DNA from: Acidimicrobiia bacterium
Lineage (GTDB): Bacteria; Actinomycetota; Acidimicrobiia; Acidimicrobiales; JAHEJN01
Direction: 5' to 3'
DNA: 42,804 nucleotides
Assembly: GCA_029861625.1 (NCBI GenBank)
Contig: JAOTZB010000003.1
Location: forward strand, 1 to 42,804
Program-made: the position numbers and the translations under genes
The notes under the pieces: model-generated
What the model was told of the DNA's origin: nothing
The model's database searches: none
The model's input: only the letters and a program-made list of their open reading frames with translations
In this document: in pieces, positions 9,820 through 17,403 of the stretch
How positions within the stretch are numbered: position 1 is the stretch's first letter
Layout of the letters: every line of letters begins with the position of its first letter

Positions 9820-12354
9820 TCAGCCGCCCGTCGAGGCCATGCCACGTTCCACCGCCAGGGCCGCGAGTATGAGTCCGAGGTGGGAGTAAGCCTGCGGGTG
9901 GTTGCCGAGCATGGTCTCATTGCGTGGCTCGTACTGCTCGCTCAGCAATCCGGTCGGACCGATGCGGTCGACCATCCCCTTGAAGAGCTGGCGGGCATCG
10001 GCGAGCTGGCCCATCAAGACGTACGCCTCGATGAGCCACGCCGAACAGATCAGGAAGCCGCCCTCGTCTCCGGGGAGACCGTCGTCGAACCGGTACCGGT
10101 AGACGATCGGGCCATTTCGCAGCTTGCGTTCGATGCCCCGGACGGTCGCGACGAATCGGGAGTCGGTGGGCGGCAACAGCCCCGACAGGCCGATGTGCAA
10201 CACGCTGGCGTCGAGATAGTCGTCGCCGTAGGCGATCGTGTAGGCGCGCACGCGGTCGTTCCAGCCGTTCTCGATGACATCGGCGGCGATCAGATGGCGA
10301 AGTGGACGCCAGCTCGCCGGTACGGCACGACCGGAGGCGTGGCCGACCCTCACGGCGCGGTCGACGGCCTGCCAACACATCACCTTCGAGTGCACGTGAT
10401 GGCGCTGCGCGCGGCGCTCCTCCCAGATGCCGTTGTCGGGTTCGAACCAGCGAGCGCGGACGGCGGCAACCATGTCGATGACGAGCTGCCAGTGAGCATC
10501 CTCGAGCGGCTCGCCCCGCGCCACGAGCCGCCAGATCAGGTCGACGACCGGCCCGAAGACGTCGAGCTGCACCTGGCTGTCGGCCGCATTGCCGATCCGC
10601 ACCGGTCGTGACCCTCGGTAGCCGTTGAGGGTGGGAAGCACTGCCTCCGGCAGGAACTCGTCGCCCTCGACGGCGTAAAGCGGACGGAGCTGATCGGGCC
10701 CCGGCAGGTGGTCGACCCGATCGAGCAGCCATGCGAGCAACGCCTTGGCCTCGTCGACGGCACCGAGCTCGACGAGAGCGGCCGCGCTCAACGACGCATC
10801 GCGGGGCCAGCAGTATCGGTAGTCCCAGTTGCGGACGCCGCCCAGCTCCTCGGGCAACGACGTCGTCGCGGCTGCATAGATCGCGCCGGTGGGCTCATAA
10901 CACAGCGCCTTGAGGACGAGCGCGCTGCGCCTGACCTCGTTCGTGGCCACCGTCGGGAGCACGAGCCGCTCTGCCCACCGAGACCAGTGCTCGACCGTGC
11001 CCCGGCGGCGGTCGGCCTCGTCGAGCTCGGTCGGTCGGTCGACATGGGCATCGAAGATCAGCTCGAGCGCGAGCGACTGTCCGTCGAGCTCGACGTGGCC
11101 GACCGCCGATTCGTGGGGGCCCGCGTCGATGATCTCCCAGCTGACGCCTTGCGCACGCAGCTCGATCACGTGCTGGGCGCCCCGCACGATGACGCTGTCA
11201 CCGGACAGCGTGAGACGGGTGAAGGCTCGGCCGTAGTCGGGACGGGGCGCGTACTCGATGATCACCGGCCCCCGACCCTCGAGCACCCGGAGGAGGTCGG
11301 TCCTACCCGCCGGCTCCCGGGTCCGTGCCGCCGCGCAGTCGAGGTAGTCGGTCACGATGAGATCCGACCAGCGAGTCTCGAGCACCATGGTGTCGGGCAG
11401 ATACCGCTGGGAGATCGGCCGCGCGGCGCTGTCGGGCCGAACGGAGAAGTACCCGGCCCGGGGACCACCGAGGAGCTCTGCAAACACCGCGGGCGAATCG
11501 GCTCTCGGATGGCACAACCAGGTGATGCGCGCGTCCGGCGTCACCAATGCGAGCGTGCGTTGATCGGACAGCAGCGAGTGCCGCTCGATGGCCGGCGCCG
11601 TGTCGCCCTCGAGCCACGCCCGGCGTAGCTCACAGAGGCGTGCGAGCAGGTGCGAGAAGGCGTCGGGGTCCGAGACCCGTGCGATCGCGGCGGACTCACC
11701 CGGACCGATCTTGACCCCGAGGTCGGGCCCGGTGAGCCGCTCGAACGCGTCCTCGTCGGTGATGTCGTCGCCTGCGAAGAGGACTGCCTCGACGCCGATG
11801 AGGTGGCGCAGATCGGTGAGCGCCGTGCCCTTGTCGGTCTCGACGACCGCGAGCTCGATCACCATCTTGCCCGGCTTGACCACGACGCCCTCGAGTGAGC
11901 CGGCGCCGGCCACGGCATCGTCCACTGCTTGTTCGTGCAGGGCGACCGGCACCTGTCGGTAATGCAACGCCACGCTGGCCGGCTTGCGCTCGACGATGAA
12001 CCCGGGATGGCCTTGCGCGATCTCGCCGAGCGCCGTGGCGATCTCGTCGCGCCGCTCGAGCTGCGCGTGATTCAGCGCGTGCACGAAGCCGGCATCGAAC
12101 TCGGAGCCGTGGCTGCCGATGAGGTGGATCTCCTCCGGCAGCCGGCTGAGCGCCGCGAGATCGCGGAGGGACCGGCCCGAGATCACCGCGACGTGGGTGT
12201 CGGGCATGGCGGCCAGCGTGCGGAGCGCGGCGATCGACTCGCGGAGCGGTCGCGCCTCGTCGGGGTTGTCGACAATGGGCGCCAGTGTCCCGTCGTAGTC
12301 GCACGCCACCAGGATGACCGGCGTCCGGGCGAAGGCCCGGAGGCTGTCGATCAT
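9820..12354 (-). CDS. otsB: Trehalose-6-phosphate phosphatase (OtsB, HAD) fused to a GH15 glycoside hydrolase (trehalase-like)
   Basis: N-terminal DYDGTLAP, ISGR and GDDITDE HAD motifs; C-terminal AAATTSLPE, RNWDYRYCWPRDA, GIWE and GNHPQAYSH GH15 motifs. ATG 12354 overlaps the otsA stop. Confidence 0.93.
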   Translation of the reverse strand: MIDSLRAFARTPVILVACDYDGTLAPIVDNPDEARPLRESIAALRTLAAMPDTHVAVISGRSLRDLAALSRLPEEIHLIGSHGSEFDAGFVHALNHAQLERRDEIATALGEIAQGHPGFIVERKPASVALHYRQVPVALHEQAVDDAVAGAGSLEGVVVKPGKMVIELAVVETDKGTALTDLRHLIGVEAVLFAGDDITDEDAFERLTGPDLGVKIGPGESAAIARVSDPDAFSHLLARLCELRRAWLEGDTAPAIERHSLLSDQRTLALVTPDARITWLCHPRADSPAVFAELLGGPRAGYFSVRPDSAARPISQRYLPDTMVLETRWSDLIVTDYLDCAAARTREPAGRTDLLRVLEGRGPVIIEYAPRPDYGRAFTRLTLSGDSVIVRGAQHVIELRAQGVSWEIIDAGPHESAVGHVELDGQSLALELIFDAHVDRPTELDEADRRRGTVEHWSRWAERLVLPTVATNEVRRSALVLKALCYEPTGAIYAAATTSLPEELGGVRNWDYRYCWPRDASLSAAALVELGAVDEAKALLAWLLDRVDHLPGPDQLRPLYAVEGDEFLPEAVLPTLNGYRGSRPVRIGNAADSQVQLDVFGPVVDLIWRLVARGEPLEDAHWQLVIDMVAAVRARWFEPDNGIWEERRAQRHHVHSKVMCWQAVDRAVRVGHASGRAVPASWRPLRHLIAADVIENGWNDRVRAYTIAYGDDYLDASVLHIGLSGLLPPTDSRFVATVRGIERKLRNGPIVYRYRFDDGLPGDEGGFLICSAWLIEAYVLMGQLADARQLFKGMVDRIGPTGLLSEQYEPRNETMLGNHPQAYSHLGLILAALAVERGMASTGG

Positions 12355-13742
12355 GTGCGCTCGAGCTCCGCCAGGAAGCTCGTGGCCCATTGCTGGGCCG
12401 ACGTGCGACGAACGAGTCGTCGCATCGGACGCATCCGCGACGACTGCTCGGCCGGTGGCATGGTCGCAGCTGCTTCGATCGCACCCTTGACGCCGTCGAT
12501 GTCGTACGGGTTCACGAGCACCGCCTGCCGCAGTTGGTGAGCGGCGCCCGCGAACTCGCTGAGCACCAGGACCCCACGGTTGTCGACGCGTGCCGCGACG
12601 TACTCCTTGGCGACCAGGTTCATCCCGTCGCGAAATGGTGTCACGACCATGACATCGGCGAGCCGGTAGAGCGCGATGAGCTCGTCGAACGGCTGGCTCT
12701 GGTGGAGGTAGACCACCGCCGGTTTGTCCATGGTGCCGAAGTCCCCGTTTATCTCACCGACGAGCTGTTCGACCGTGACCCGGATCTCGTTGTAGCGGTT
12801 GACGTTCGACCGGCTCGGTTCGGCGATCTGCACCAAGGTCGTGGTCTCGGGGTCGAGCCGGCGTTCCTGCAGGAGCTCGTGATAGGCGCGTAGCCGACGA
12901 TCGATGCCCTTGGTGTAGTCGAGCCGATCGACGCCGAGCAGCACGGTCGTCGGCGACCCGAGGTTCTCCAACAGCGTCTCGGCCCGCTCGGCGGCGGCTG
13001 GGGCGCTGGCCCCATCGCTGAACCGGTCGAAGTCGATACCGATGGGATGGCGGACGGTCGCCACGTCCCGGGACCCGTAGGTGATGACGGACCCGTGCGT
13101 GGTCGCGTCGCACACCCGAGGGACGCTGTGGCGGAAGTTGTGGAGCGTCGTGCGGGTCTGGAAGCCGACGAGGTCGGCGCCGAGCAGCCCCTTGGCGACC
13201 TGCCGGCGCCAGGGGAGCCGCATGAAGATCTCCCGGGCCGGGAAGGGAATGTGCAAGAAGAAGCCGATGCGAAGATCGGGCCTCATCTCGCGCAACATGC
13301 CGGGGACCAGTTGGAGCTGATAGTCGTGCACCCAGACCGTGGCGTCGATCTCGGCCCGGTCGACCACGGCGTGGGCGAAGCGCTGGTTGACGACGACATA
13401 GCGATCCCACCAGTGCCGGTGATAGTCAGCCGGAGAGATCGCATCGTGATACAGCGGCCAGAGGGTGGAGTTCGAGAACCCTTCGTAGTAGTCCTCGACA
13501 TCGCTCGGGTCGAGCGCAACCGGCACGAGGTGCACGCCGTCCAGCTCGAACGGAGCCGGAGCGTCGCCAGGGGCGCCCGCCCAACCGACCCATGTCGATC
13601 CCGGTCGAGCGCTCATGACCGGCCCGAGGGCCGAGACCAGACCACCCGGGCTCGTCTCGTACCGGGTCTCCCCGTGCTCGGTGACGGCGCGGATCGGCAG
13701 ACGGTTGGCGACCACGAGGAGTTGTCGTTGGCGGTCGGGCAT
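12351..13742 (-). CDS. otsA: Trehalose-6-phosphate synthase (GT20)
   Basis: [55 protein letters not shown]. Confidence 0.97.
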
Positions 13743-14458: not shown

Positions 14459-14533
14459 CCCGTCGGACCCCGGAACATCGCGCATCGGTGCCATCGCCGA
14501 ATACCATTGCTGGCTTCCAGACCAGAGGGCCCT

Positions 14534-15121
14534 GTGACTGTCCGACTTCCCGCCGCAACCCGACGCCGCCAACTGCTCGAGACCGCAACGATCACGTTCG
14601 GCAAGGAAGGTTTCCATGCCACGTCGATGAACGACGTGGCCGACGCCGCCGGCGTCACCAAGCCGGTTCTCTACCAGCACTTCGCGTCCAAGGAGGCGCT
14701 CTTCGAGGCCGTCCTCGCCCACGTCGGCGACGTGTTGCGGACATCGATCGAGGCATCCGTCGCTCCCGCCGAGGGGCCACGAGAGCGGGTCGAGAAGGGT
14801 TTCCAGGCGTACTTCGAGTTCCTGCGCGATCGCCGCGAGGCGGCTCGGGTGCTGTTCGGCGAGGCCCGACGCACCGACGAGTCGATCAGCGCCGAGGCCG
14901 ATCGGGCCGTGCAGTCGATCGCCGACATGGTCACCGACCTCATCGAGGTCGAGGGGCTCGACCGCCCCGCCCGTGAGGTGCTCGCCAACGCCATCGTCGG
15001 CCTGGCCGAAGGCGCCGGACGCCACTGGGCCCGCCATCACGACGAGATCAGCGCCGAGCGGCTGGCATCGCTGGTCGCCGAGCTCGCGTGGGCCGGGCTA
15101 CGGGGCGCCGGCCCCGTCTGA
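14534..15121 (+). CDS. TetR/AcrR family transcriptional regulator
   Basis: HTH GFHATSMNDVADAAGVTKPVLYQHFASKEAL. Start set at GTG 14534; TACCAT at 14502-14507. Confidence 0.95.
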   Translation: MTVRLPAATRRRQLLETATITFGKEGFHATSMNDVADAAGVTKPVLYQHFASKEALFEAVLAHVGDVLRTSIEASVAPAEGPRERVEKGFQAYFEFLRDRREAARVLFGEARRTDESISAEADRAVQSIADMVTDLIEVEGLDRPAREVLANAIVGLAEGAGRHWARHHDEISAERLASLVAELAWAGLRGAGPV

Positions 15122-15126
15122 GGCGG

Positions 15127-15624
15127 CTAGTTCCGGACCGACGGCGAGATGTCGATCGGTTCGTCCGGAATGTCGCCGGCGACGATCGCGGGCAGGAACT
15201 CACGGAGCCGGGTCGGCAACAGCGGCTCGTCGGTGGCGAGGACCTCGTCGATCGTCCACCAGTCGGCACCCTCGAATGCCGCGGCTTCGAGCGCCTCGAG
15301 ATGCATCGGGCGCCATTCGCCACCGTCGCACCACGCGACGTGGATGCGCTCGTCGGAATCGAAGTGATAGCCGGCGAAGTCGAACTCGACGTGTTGCACC
15401 CAGATGCAGGGTCCCATCTCGACCTCGGCGAACCCGGCCTCCTCGTACAGTTCGCGCCTCGCGGCGTCGGAGGAGCTCTCGCCCCAGTTCATCCCGCCGC
15501 CCGGAATCTCCCACCAGGGTGGCTTCGAGCCGTCGATCGGATCGGAGGCGCGCATCAAGAAGATGCGGCCGTCGCGATCGAAGAGCACGACCCGCGCGGC
15601 CGGGCGACGCAACGTGAAGACCAT
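15127..15624 (-). CDS. NUDIX hydrolase
   Basis: Nudix box PGGGMNWGESSSDAARRELYEEAG. ATG 15624 is preceded by TATCGT at 6 nt (leaderless). Confidence 0.93.
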   Translation of the reverse strand: MVFTLRRPAARVVLFDRDGRIFLMRASDPIDGSKPPWWEIPGGGMNWGESSSDAARRELYEEAGFAEVEMGPCIWVQHVEFDFAGYHFDSDERIHVAWCDGGEWRPMHLEALEAAAFEGADWWTIDEVLATDEPLLPTRLREFLPAIVAGDIPDEPIDISPSVRN

Positions 15625-15684
15625 CGGCGCACGATACTTCGCTGCGCATCCAGCGCAGATCTCGCGCCGACCCGCACCCGGACG

Positions 15685-15952
15685 CGCAGCGGGCACCCCG
15701 CTCGGGGTGCCCGCTCGCGGTGAGATGAGCATTGTCACGATCCTCGGGACGTTCCACCTGGTTCTTCCTCGAGTGGCCTCTCGGGCCCTGCGGGTGAGAG
15801 AAAGCTGCGGGAGAGTCTCGACGTCCGTGACGGCTCAGAAAGTCACCGTTTCGGAGGATCCCGTTCGCCATCGACAATCGGTGGGAACATCTCGATCCAA
15901 CCTCCTTGCCTCTCTGTCACCTGCTGTGTCCGGTGGACCAGTCAGCGTGACT
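15685..15952 (-). ncRNA. Candidate structured ncRNA (~265 nt), 6S/Ms1-like rod
   Basis: Bounded by a promoter and a terminator hairpin. Nested long-range pairings (plus-strand coordinates): 15946-15951/15734-15739, 15932-15937/15753-15758, 15908-15924/15790-15805, 15885-15891/15820-15826. Confidence 0.55.
15688..15715 (-). terminator. GC-rich terminator-like hairpin
   Basis: Perfect 12-bp inverted repeat AGCGGGCACCCC-gctc-GGGGTGCCCGCT with no U-tract. No annotated CDS ends at it. Confidence 0.7.
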
Positions 15953-15958
15953 ACCGCA

Positions 15959-15987
15959 ACTATCCGCCCGCACGTGGTCTGTGTCAA
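15959..15987 (-). promoter_or_regulatory. Sigma-A-type promoter TTGACA-N17-GATAGT
   Basis: Perfect -35 (15982-15987), 17-nt spacer, -10 at 15959-15964; predicted TSS near 15952. Confidence 0.6.
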
Positions 15988-15995
15988 GCGTCACA
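15980..15995. promoter_or_regulatory. CRP/GlxR-like site TGTGT-N6-TCACA
   Basis: One mismatch to TGTGA-N6-TCACA; overlaps the -35 above. Confidence 0.4.
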
Positions 15996-16141
15996 TGCAT
16001 TGCCGCCATGTTGCTGCCGCGTGACATCTCATCATGGTCTTCCGTTCCCCCCCGTCGTGGCGCTATGGTCTGTCGCCACTAGAGACGAACGCGTCGAGAA
16101 CCACCCGCCGTGTTCGCGATAGCCAACCCATGGAGGGGTAC

Positions 16142-17347
16142 ATGTTGACTCGTAGATGGCTGACCTTGTTCGCCGTCATCGCCACGTTCGGTCTGCTCGC
16201 TGCAGCCTGCGGTAGCGATGACGACGGCGATGAACCAGCAGCCAGTGACGACACCGCAGAAGCCGACGAAGCCGATGCAGCCGACGAAGCCGATGCAGCC
16301 GACGAAGCCGACGAAGCCGACGAAGCCGACGAAGCCGACGAAGCCGACGCAGGCGACGAAGCCGACGAAGGCGACGAGACCGTCGAGCTGACCCAGGACG
16401 GAGGCCGACTCCAGGCCGTCCGCGATCGCGGCAGCCTCATCTGTGGTGGCAACGACACGCTTCCGGGCTTCGGCTTCGTCGACGACGCCGGTGACTTCTC
16501 CGGCTTCGACATCGACTTCTGTCGAGTGGTGGCAGCAGGCGTCCTCGGCGATGCCGATGCTGTCGAGTTCGTGCCGCTCACCGCAGAGGCCCGCTTCACG
16601 GCCCTCCAGTCGGGCGAGATCGACGTGCTGATCCGCAACACCACCTGGACTGCGACCCGCGACGGCCAGGAAGGCGCGAACTTCTTGTTCACGACCTTCT
16701 TCGACGGCCAGGGCGTGATGGTCCCGGCGGCGACAGGCTTCACGACCCTCGAGGACCTCGCCGATGCGAACATCTGCGTGCTGTCGGGTACCACGACCGA
16801 GCTGAACCTCACCGCGGTGTTCAATGCGCGCGGCATCCCGTTCAACCCGGTCGTGTTCGAGGACAACACCCAGCTCCGCCCGGCCTATGAAGAGGGCCAG
16901 TGCGAAGGCTGGACCTCTGACGCCTCGCAGCTGGCGGCCTTCAAGGCCACCATCGAGGGAGAGGGCGGCGAAGACCAGTTCATCATGGCCGAGATCATCT
17001 CGAAGGAGCCGCTCGGTCCCGTCGTCGCCGATGGCGACACGGAGTGGGCACAGGCCGTCGAGTGGTCGGTCATGGCGCCGGTGCAGGCCTGGGAGTTCGG
17101 GCTCGACTCGGGAACCATCGGCAGCTACGACGGTGATGACCCGAACATCTTGAACTTCATCGGTACCGATGGATTCGATCCGGGTCTCGGCCTTCCGCCC
17201 GATTTCGCGGTGACCATCGTGTCGTCGGTCGGGAACTACGAGGAGATCTACAACGCCAACATCGTCCCGATCGGTCTGTCGCTCGCCGGCTCGCCGAACG
17301 ACCTGTGGACGAATGGCGGCCTCATGTACGTCCCGCCGTATCGCTAG
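16142..17347 (+). CDS. aapJ: General L-amino acid ABC transporter substrate-binding lipoprotein (AapJ/BztA-like)
   Basis: GGAGGGG SD, lipobox LLAAAC, GFDIDFCR, RFTALQSGEIDVLIRNTTWT, IISKEPLGP, NGGLMYVPPYR. Confidence 0.93.
   Translation: MLTRRWLTLFAVIATFGLLAAACGSDDDGDEPAASDDTAEADEADAADEADAADEADEADEADEADEADAGDEADEGDETVELTQDGGRLQAVRDRGSLICGGNDTLPGFGFVDDAGDFSGFDIDFCRVVAAGVLGDADAVEFVPLTAEARFTALQSGEIDVLIRNTTWTATRDGQEGANFLFTTFFDGQGVMVPAATGFTTLEDLADANICVLSGTTTELNLTAVFNARGIPFNPVVFEDNTQLRPAYEEGQCEGWTSDASQLAAFKATIEGEGGEDQFIMAEIISKEPLGPVVADGDTEWAQAVEWSVMAPVQAWEFGLDSGTIGSYDGDDPNILNFIGTDGFDPGLGLPPDFAVTIVSSVGNYEEIYNANIVPIGLSLAGSPNDLWTNGGLMYVPPYR
16262..16378 (+). repeat. 13 x 9-bp tandem repeat (consensus GCCGACGAA) encoding an acidic (ADE)n linker
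   Basis: Units counted directly; in frame, between the lipobox and the binding domain. Confidence 0.92.
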
Positions 17348-17372: not shown

Positions 17373-17403
17373 GGGGCGGTCTCGGATGCACCGAGACCGC
17401 CCC
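17373..17403 (+). terminator. Hairpin after the substrate-binding protein gene (terminator or mRNA stabiliser)
   Basis: 13-bp perfect stem GGGGCGGTCTCGG-atgca-CCGAGACCGCCCC. Confidence 0.75.

Follow-up and report, generated by a model that had tools for sequence, protein, structure and literature searches.

The gap between a NUDIX hydrolase gene and a divergent aapJ-like gene in an Acidimicrobiales genome probably holds a new, lineage-specific small RNA (sRNA), as judged by comparison of related genomes. The reading we hold to be somewhat probable is a separate, promoter-driven sRNA gene that is restricted to a small clade, with a rod-like hairpin that would be read partly by its sequence and a 3' hairpin that would insulate the promoter of a leaderless gene. 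A complete minus-strand unit and a new sRNA class had been put forward in the original prediction, and the relatives lend support to both, as they appear to share the promoter, the structured core, the 3' stem-loop and a NUDIX -10 element downstream. If expressed, the RNA would be a first candidate for an sRNA family in an uncultured branch of the Acidimicrobiales, and the abutment of an sRNA 3' hairpin on the promoter of a predicted leaderless gene is a compact arrangement. No sRNA for the Acidimicrobiales was found in Rfam or in the partly accessible literature that was searched, and the same literature yielded nothing on the gap RNA, including RNA motifs upstream of Nudix genes in Actinobacteria. 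The narrow distribution of the candidate limits its general interest.

The window, i.e., the whole 42.8-kb stretch of DNA analyzed, belongs to a MAG of 489 contigs which is 89.9% complete. The gap spans about 515 nt. On one side lies the NUDIX gene (15127..15624, minus strand, 165 aa; Pfam PF00293, 77.4 bits), whose start was set at ATG 15624 (MVFTLRRPAARV...) by orthologue alignment. On the other side, the aapJ-like gene (16142..17347, plus strand) is divergent from the RNA and starts at ATG 16142, preceded by a conserved Shine-Dalgarno (SD) sequence, GGAGGGG. Its product is an amino-acid ABC substrate-binding lipoprotein (Pfam SBP_bac_3), which scored 129.7 bits against TIGR01096, under the cut-off of that model. 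A TetR-family gene (14507-15121, plus strand) is convergent with the NUDIX gene, an arrangement found at 18 of 66 NUDIX loci.

Promoter and ends of the predicted RNA

The minus strand of the gap carries TTGACA (15982..15987) and GATAGT (15959..15964) separated by a 17-nt spacer, and in 15300-16400, for which 0.1 promoter-like sites are expected, this pair (15987-15959) is the only one. It would be a near-consensus promoter of the sigma-A type. We compared it across four lineages, comprising seven sequences: the window, the genome G081, and the genera g2 and g3. TTGAC of the -35 and ATAGT of the -10 are invariant in the four lineages, the spacers are 17-18 nt long and differ in sequence, and the surroundings of the hexamers are poorly conserved, with a mean column identity of 61% (alignment A6, four lineages). 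The promoter named in the original prediction is thus present, and its hexamers have been kept amid diverged DNA. A promoter of its own that is kept in relatives is a feature of an independent sRNA gene. From this promoter, a minus-strand transcript would start at the A at 15952, and the predicted transcripts of all four lineages start with (A/U)GUCAC, 6 nt past the -10.

The putative end of the RNA is a GC-rich stem-loop at 15688..15715 on the minus strand. The perfect 12-bp hairpin reported there earlier is real and has a 4-nt loop, GAGC. It is one of two perfect hairpins of at least 10 bp in the window, the other being at 17373-17403. The sequence UGCGCG follows the first hairpin, and neither is followed by a U tract. 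All four lineages have a strong hairpin 3' of the rod, with sequences that differ in g2 and g3, but the U tract of an intrinsic terminator is absent from each. We propose that the stem-loop, situated just upstream of the NUDIX -10, would end or insulate the RNA unit. With an end at this hairpin, the predicted RNA would be about 265 nt long in the window, about 268 nt in G081, 189 nt in g3 and 156 nt in g2. In the window genome it would consist of a 5' hairpin, an SD-led 15-codon open reading frame (ORF), the rod and the 3' stem-loop. One metatranscriptome run shares 0.07 of the sampled words, with reads not placed on the window.

The conserved rod

The conserved part of the RNA is an imperfect hairpin of ~100 nt (15734..15831, minus strand), here called the rod, whose architecture recurs when the four lineages are folded independently (MFE), at lengths of about 100-115 nt. 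In the window it is built of an outer GUCACGG/UCGUGAC stem, a UCGAGAC/GUCCCGA stem, CCGC/GUGG, a pyrimidine/purine helix and an apical GGCC hairpin. The order from the outside in, i.e., outer stems, CCGC/GUGG, pyrimidine/purine helix and apical hairpin, is common to all four lineages, with CUUUCUC pairing with GAGGAAG or equivalents in the pyrimidine/purine helix. Two blocks stand out in the alignment of all seven sequences (A7). The block CAGCUUUCU (15799..15807, minus strand) is invariant in 7/7 sequences and is mostly base-paired, and within the block GGUGGAACG (15750..15758, minus strand) UGGAA is invariant in 7/7. The outer and apical helices vary in sequence between lineages, and the outer stems stay complementary. 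Since the two blocks are invariant while other helices change, the rod may be a functional module that a protein or an RNA partner recognizes in part by its sequence. In that case we picture a stable sRNA with a regulatory role, and NUDIX could be affected locally as well, by read-through or by occlusion of its promoter.

Pairing within the rod was examined in several ways. The flanks beyond the invariant blocks out-pair shuffled flanks in three of the four lineages, as 3, 11, 1 and 49 of 300 shuffles were as good, the weak value of 49 being that of g2. In A7, 85.5% of the cells of the rod are paired, versus 43-60% with slid partners, and four pairs are changed on both sides. The covariation score was 0.274 versus 0.174 and none of 500 shuffles reached 0.274, in a comparison of low power that has four independent lineages (seven sequences) and a structure derived from these same sequences. 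As a single sequence, the window rod is no more stable than its shuffles (z = +0.8), and the values for the other lineages were -2.7, -2.6, -1.9, -0.7 and -1.8. A sequence-only MAFFT alignment of the full rods gave an SCI of 0.29, as sequence does not suffice to align the outer helices. The antisense strand of the rod folds about equally well. In a strand test based on G-U positions, however, 85.5% of the cells pair on the sense strand, i.e., that of NUDIX, versus 77.7% on the antisense strand. The promoter has the same orientation, in support of a minus-strand transcript. A coding role of the rod was rejected, as lineages differ, internally and from one another, by indels of 1-2 nt and the frames are inconsistent.

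The region as a whole is predicted to fold well. RNAfold gave -122.6 kcal/mol for the minus strand of 15680-15955 (z = -2.95), and only 1 of 200 shuffles was as good. The MFE structure is a string of local domains rather than a single rod. The long rod originally drawn by pairing the 5' and 3' halves in nested order was not confirmed. The letters of its four pairings are complementary as claimed (6, 6, 13 of 16, and 7 pairs), but the fold is unsupported, as the enforced structure has -74.0 kcal/mol versus -84.7 kcal/mol for the MFE, i.e., 10.7 worse. The 5' part is complementary to the core only at chance level, with 26 of 300 dinucleotide shuffles as good in the window and 43 of 300 in G081. 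The pairing of the purine tract 5' of the SD with the CU strand was likewise rejected (24/300 shuffles as good in the window and 180/300 in G081). The 5' segment is missing altogether from two of the four lineages. The conserved rod has no large central bubble, and its internal loops are small, the largest being ~10 and 4 nt (g2).

At the 5' end, MFE folds of the window RNA contain a terminal hairpin (GUCACGCUG ... CAGCAGGUGAC; 15916..15951, minus strand). G081 and one of two g3 folds (L042) show an equivalent GUCAC/GUGAC hairpin. The 5' GUCAC of g2 closes the rod instead of forming a hairpin of its own.

Distribution among related genomes

A BLAST search of the gap against 61 related genomes gave a single real signal, an 80-nt stretch at 15742-15821. 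This core has 80-82% identity in three genomes of genus g3, which belong to the same family and carry it at the syntenic NUDIX/aapJ position, and nothing else matched. A covariance model of the core, R1, matched G081, a member of another GTDB family, at a syntenic position with 50.8 bits (E = 4e-6). R1 had matches in 3 of 151 genomes, and it matched 4 of the 66 loci which a peptide-pattern scan had found for NUDIX orthologues. On inspection of these loci, two more with the same layout and a lower GC content were recognized, L045 and L046, both of genus g2 in the window's own family. The RNA is single-copy in the window genome.

In an order-wide pattern scan, the element was found in 6/6 genomes of the window's family and in G081, whose family consists of one genome, i.e., in 7 of 401 genomes. 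The pattern itself matched 12 of the 401, of which five were put down to chance on the basis of their matched letters alone, and a reversed control pattern gave 10 matches in 9 genomes. A model built from all seven sequences, R2, found no new member in 60 NUDIX loci without the RNA and had no match in 150 other genomes of the class. A metagenome scan with a strict two-gap pattern, which excludes g3-type sequences by design, gave two loci. One of them (L081) is identical to g2 across the stretch read, and the other (L082) was rejected as a chance match in AT-rich coding DNA. These scans suggest that the RNA is limited to a small Acidimicrobiales clade of about two GTDB families.

The promoter of the NUDIX gene

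The NUDIX gene has a -10 of its own, TATCGT (15631..15636, minus strand), 6 nt before the ATG. This hexamer fits TANNNT, which we take to be the actinobacterial -10 consensus. All seven RNA-bearing loci have exactly one TANNNT within 45 nt before the NUDIX start, at a distance of 6-8 nt. In orthologous loci, TANNNT is found 5-9 nt before an in-frame start at 50 of 64, versus 7 of 1280 control positions, and 44 of these 50 loci are without the RNA. The frequency of TANNNT is 0.00044 per position in the window and 0.0004-0.004 overall. Among the loci without a leaderless -10, L016 has its NUDIX gene directly behind a Fur-family gene (PF01475), and in L018 and L026 it similarly lies behind another gene, as judged by eye.

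Leaderless mRNAs are common in the phylum Actinobacteria. The conserved TANNNT suggests that the NUDIX mRNA is probably leaderless as well, and the orthologue appears to be leaderless across the Acidimicrobiales. This apparent order-wide property, seen at 50/64 loci, is a by-product of the analysis and may be of broader use. As NUDIX would be transcribed from its own -10 as a leaderless mRNA, the RNA would be a separate unit and not an obligatory NUDIX 5' UTR.

A short ORF in two lineages

Between the 5' hairpin and the rod, the window RNA carries the SD sequence AAGGAGG (15901..15907, minus strand) and a 15-codon ORF, MFPPIVDGERDPPKR, followed by UGA (15843..15890, minus strand). G081 has the same heptamer and an ORF of equal length with a UUG start, LSPPSSRRQRSPPGN (15 codons and UGA; L015 951-998). 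The SD is absent from g2 and g3, and the ORF is confined to the window and G081. The distance from AAGGAGG to the start is 10 nt in the window and 6 nt in G081. The two peptides follow the pattern MxPP...RxPPxx, with five identical residues (P3, P4, R10, P12 and P13) in addition to the initiator Met (AUG versus UUG), and the codons of the first proline pair show a synonymous difference, CCA/CCG. In the second pair, CCUCC is also able to base-pair with the SD, so the match between the ORFs is explicable either by coding or by conservation of an anti-SD.

Each ORF has two Pro-Pro pairs, FPPI and DPPK in the window and SPPS and SPPG in G081. Pro-Pro motifs slow ribosomes that lack EF-P.

Comparison with known RNAs

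Both 6S, which binds the sigma-A/70 holoenzyme and serves as a template for pRNA, and Ms1, an actinobacterial RNA that binds the RNAP core and builds up in stationary phase, are housekeeping RNAs of broad conservation. The original prediction took the gap RNA for a candidate of this type. A scan of the whole window at Rfam gathering scores gave no matches. A permissive scan of the gap (E up to 10) gave eight weak rows, the best at 18.2 bits against a cut-off of 83, with no 6S or Ms1 among them, and a permissive scan of the g2, g3 and G081 loci (E up to 5) returned nothing shared and no 6S or Ms1. With 6S defined as RF00013 at 46.4 bits or more, there were no matches in the window genome or in any of 41 Acidimicrobiales genomes. 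The window RNA resembles 6S in having a rod-like hairpin and a strong promoter. It differs in that its ends do not close a single rod in the MFE fold, in having no bubble resembling an open promoter, and in its narrow distribution, which at 7/401 genomes of the order and 0/150 other genomes of the class is unlike the conservation of 6S across a class or phylum.

As described in the accessible part of the report on Ms1, this RNA is about 300 nt long and has a central bubble and short 5' and 3' hairpins, and its flanking genes encode a HAD-IB hydrolase/phosphoserine phosphatase and an oxidoreductase (PMC9130861, Table 1). The same part states that Rfam includes Ms1 but detects it only near mycobacteria (PMC9130861), and a missing Ms1 match is therefore a weak test. 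The term Acidimicrobi is absent from the main text of that report, as far as this was accessible. The window RNA is like Ms1 in being a candidate actinobacterial intergenic sRNA with its own promoter and an imperfect hairpin between 5' and 3' hairpins (PMC9130861, accessible part), and the sizes are of the same order (~265 nt versus about 300 nt). A 5' hairpin, a rod and a 3' hairpin were found in three of the four lineages; predicted lengths are 156-268 nt, and no large bubble occurs. Unlike Ms1 as described there, the window RNA is flanked by NUDIX (PF00293) and an SBP_bac_3 lipoprotein gene, with no HAD-IB or oxidoreductase gene. Its conserved part also lacks a large central bubble, and it occurs in about two GTDB families.

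With attenuating leaders and riboswitches, the window RNA has in common that a structured RNA is followed by a strong hairpin upstream of a same-strand gene. It differs from them in that NUDIX keeps a -10 and in that no multi-helix junction, antiterminator or U tract was seen. SgrS/SgrT is a dual-function sRNA that also encodes a small peptide. The SD-led short ORF on a structured RNA recalls such sRNAs in two of the four lineages, but the ORF of the window lies outside the conserved core and is predicted only.

Alternative explanations

The main rival to a separate sRNA is a cis effect on NUDIX, which we consider possible if rather unlikely. The transcript from 15952 would then be the NUDIX 5' UTR, with a conditional terminator at 15688-15715, or its read-through would occlude the NUDIX promoter. 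The placement is suggestive, as the RNA lies directly upstream of NUDIX on the same strand in 7/7 genomes and a strong hairpin separates rod and gene in 4/4 lineages. Additionally, the distance from this hairpin to the NUDIX -10 is 7 nt in G081 and 15 nt in g3 (by eye), so short that in both a NUDIX -35 region would run into the hairpin's 3' arm. The short ORF recalls control by a leader peptide, but g2 and g3 do without it. Against a leader stands the -10 at a leaderless distance in 7/7 loci, where a gene controlled by its leader would have no promoter of its own, and the presence of such a -10 at orthologous loci that mostly lack the RNA. Nor does NUDIX have an SD in any lineage (by eye), as a leadered mRNA would. 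The MFE folds, which are the basis of this comparison, gave no exclusive terminator/antiterminator pairing: with the 3' arm of the hairpin removed, the rod stays intact in 4/4 lineages and no alternative pairing between rod and hairpin arm appears. The RNA is also not tied to NUDIX alone, as aapJ adjoins NUDIX only in 6 of the 66 loci, and these are the ones bearing the RNA. That the 15-residue peptide is the main product in the window and G081, with the remaining transcript serving as UTR, is improbable in our view. The SD ahead of the start, the equal length of the two ORFs, the shared residues and the synonymous change speak for translation, but the ORF is carried by two related sequences only, CCUCC may owe its conservation to an anti-SD role and not to its codons, the RNA of g2 and g3 lacks the ORF, and 15 residues are too short for a homology search.

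An RNAP-binding RNA of the 6S/Ms1 type, e.g., an Ms1-like scaffold diverged so far in a small Acidimicrobiales clade that it is no longer recognizable, is to our mind very improbable. The strong promoter fits such an RNA, the three-part layout in 3/4 lineages loosely resembles Ms1 as described in the accessible part of PMC9130861, and with no Rfam 6S in 41 Acidimicrobiales genomes the niche is seemingly unfilled. However, no 6S is recognizable in the order as sampled, yet the RNA is found in only a small fraction of that order, which is at odds with the broad conservation of 6S and Ms1. The 6S/Ms1 assignment of the original prediction was not sustained on other grounds either: neither the gap nor its relatives have an Rfam match, the neighboring genes differ from those that served to find Ms1, the conserved rod has small internal loops only, and the big-rod fold is 10.7 kcal/mol above the MFE and at shuffle level. 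We give equally little credence to the view that there is no functional RNA, and that the conservation reflects a DNA-level site in a divergent promoter region or chance among close relatives. It would account for the comparable folding of the antisense strand, for a window rod no stabler than shuffles and for the small number of lineages. A paired region of ~100 bp with arms ~30-90 bp apart is unlike an operator, however, and the outer arms vary yet stay complementary, the conserved promoter has the right place and orientation, and the G-U positions favor one strand.

Neighboring features

Some further features of the window were recorded. Past the 12-bp hairpin and before the NUDIX -10 there is a second strong hairpin (GCGCGUCCGG...CUGGAUGCGC; 15640-15687). 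Only the longer spacer of the window genome was seen to contain it, and it would overlap the NUDIX -35 region. The perfect hairpin at 17373-17403 has 13 bp, is located 26 nt past the aapJ stop and ahead of the first permease gene, and has no U tract; it may be an intra-operon stabilizer or a partial terminator. In the N-terminus of the aapJ-like product, a long acidic low-complexity linker (ADEADAADEADEADEADEA..., 16230-16420) follows the lipoprotein signal peptide and is coded by a GCTTCGTCGGC-type repeat, and the linkers of relatives are similar and shorter. On the minus strand at 9820-13742, a trehalose-6-phosphate synthase gene (Glyco_transf_20, 472 bits) overlaps a gene for an 856-aa fusion of a trehalose-phosphatase, a trehalase-like N domain and a GH15 domain.
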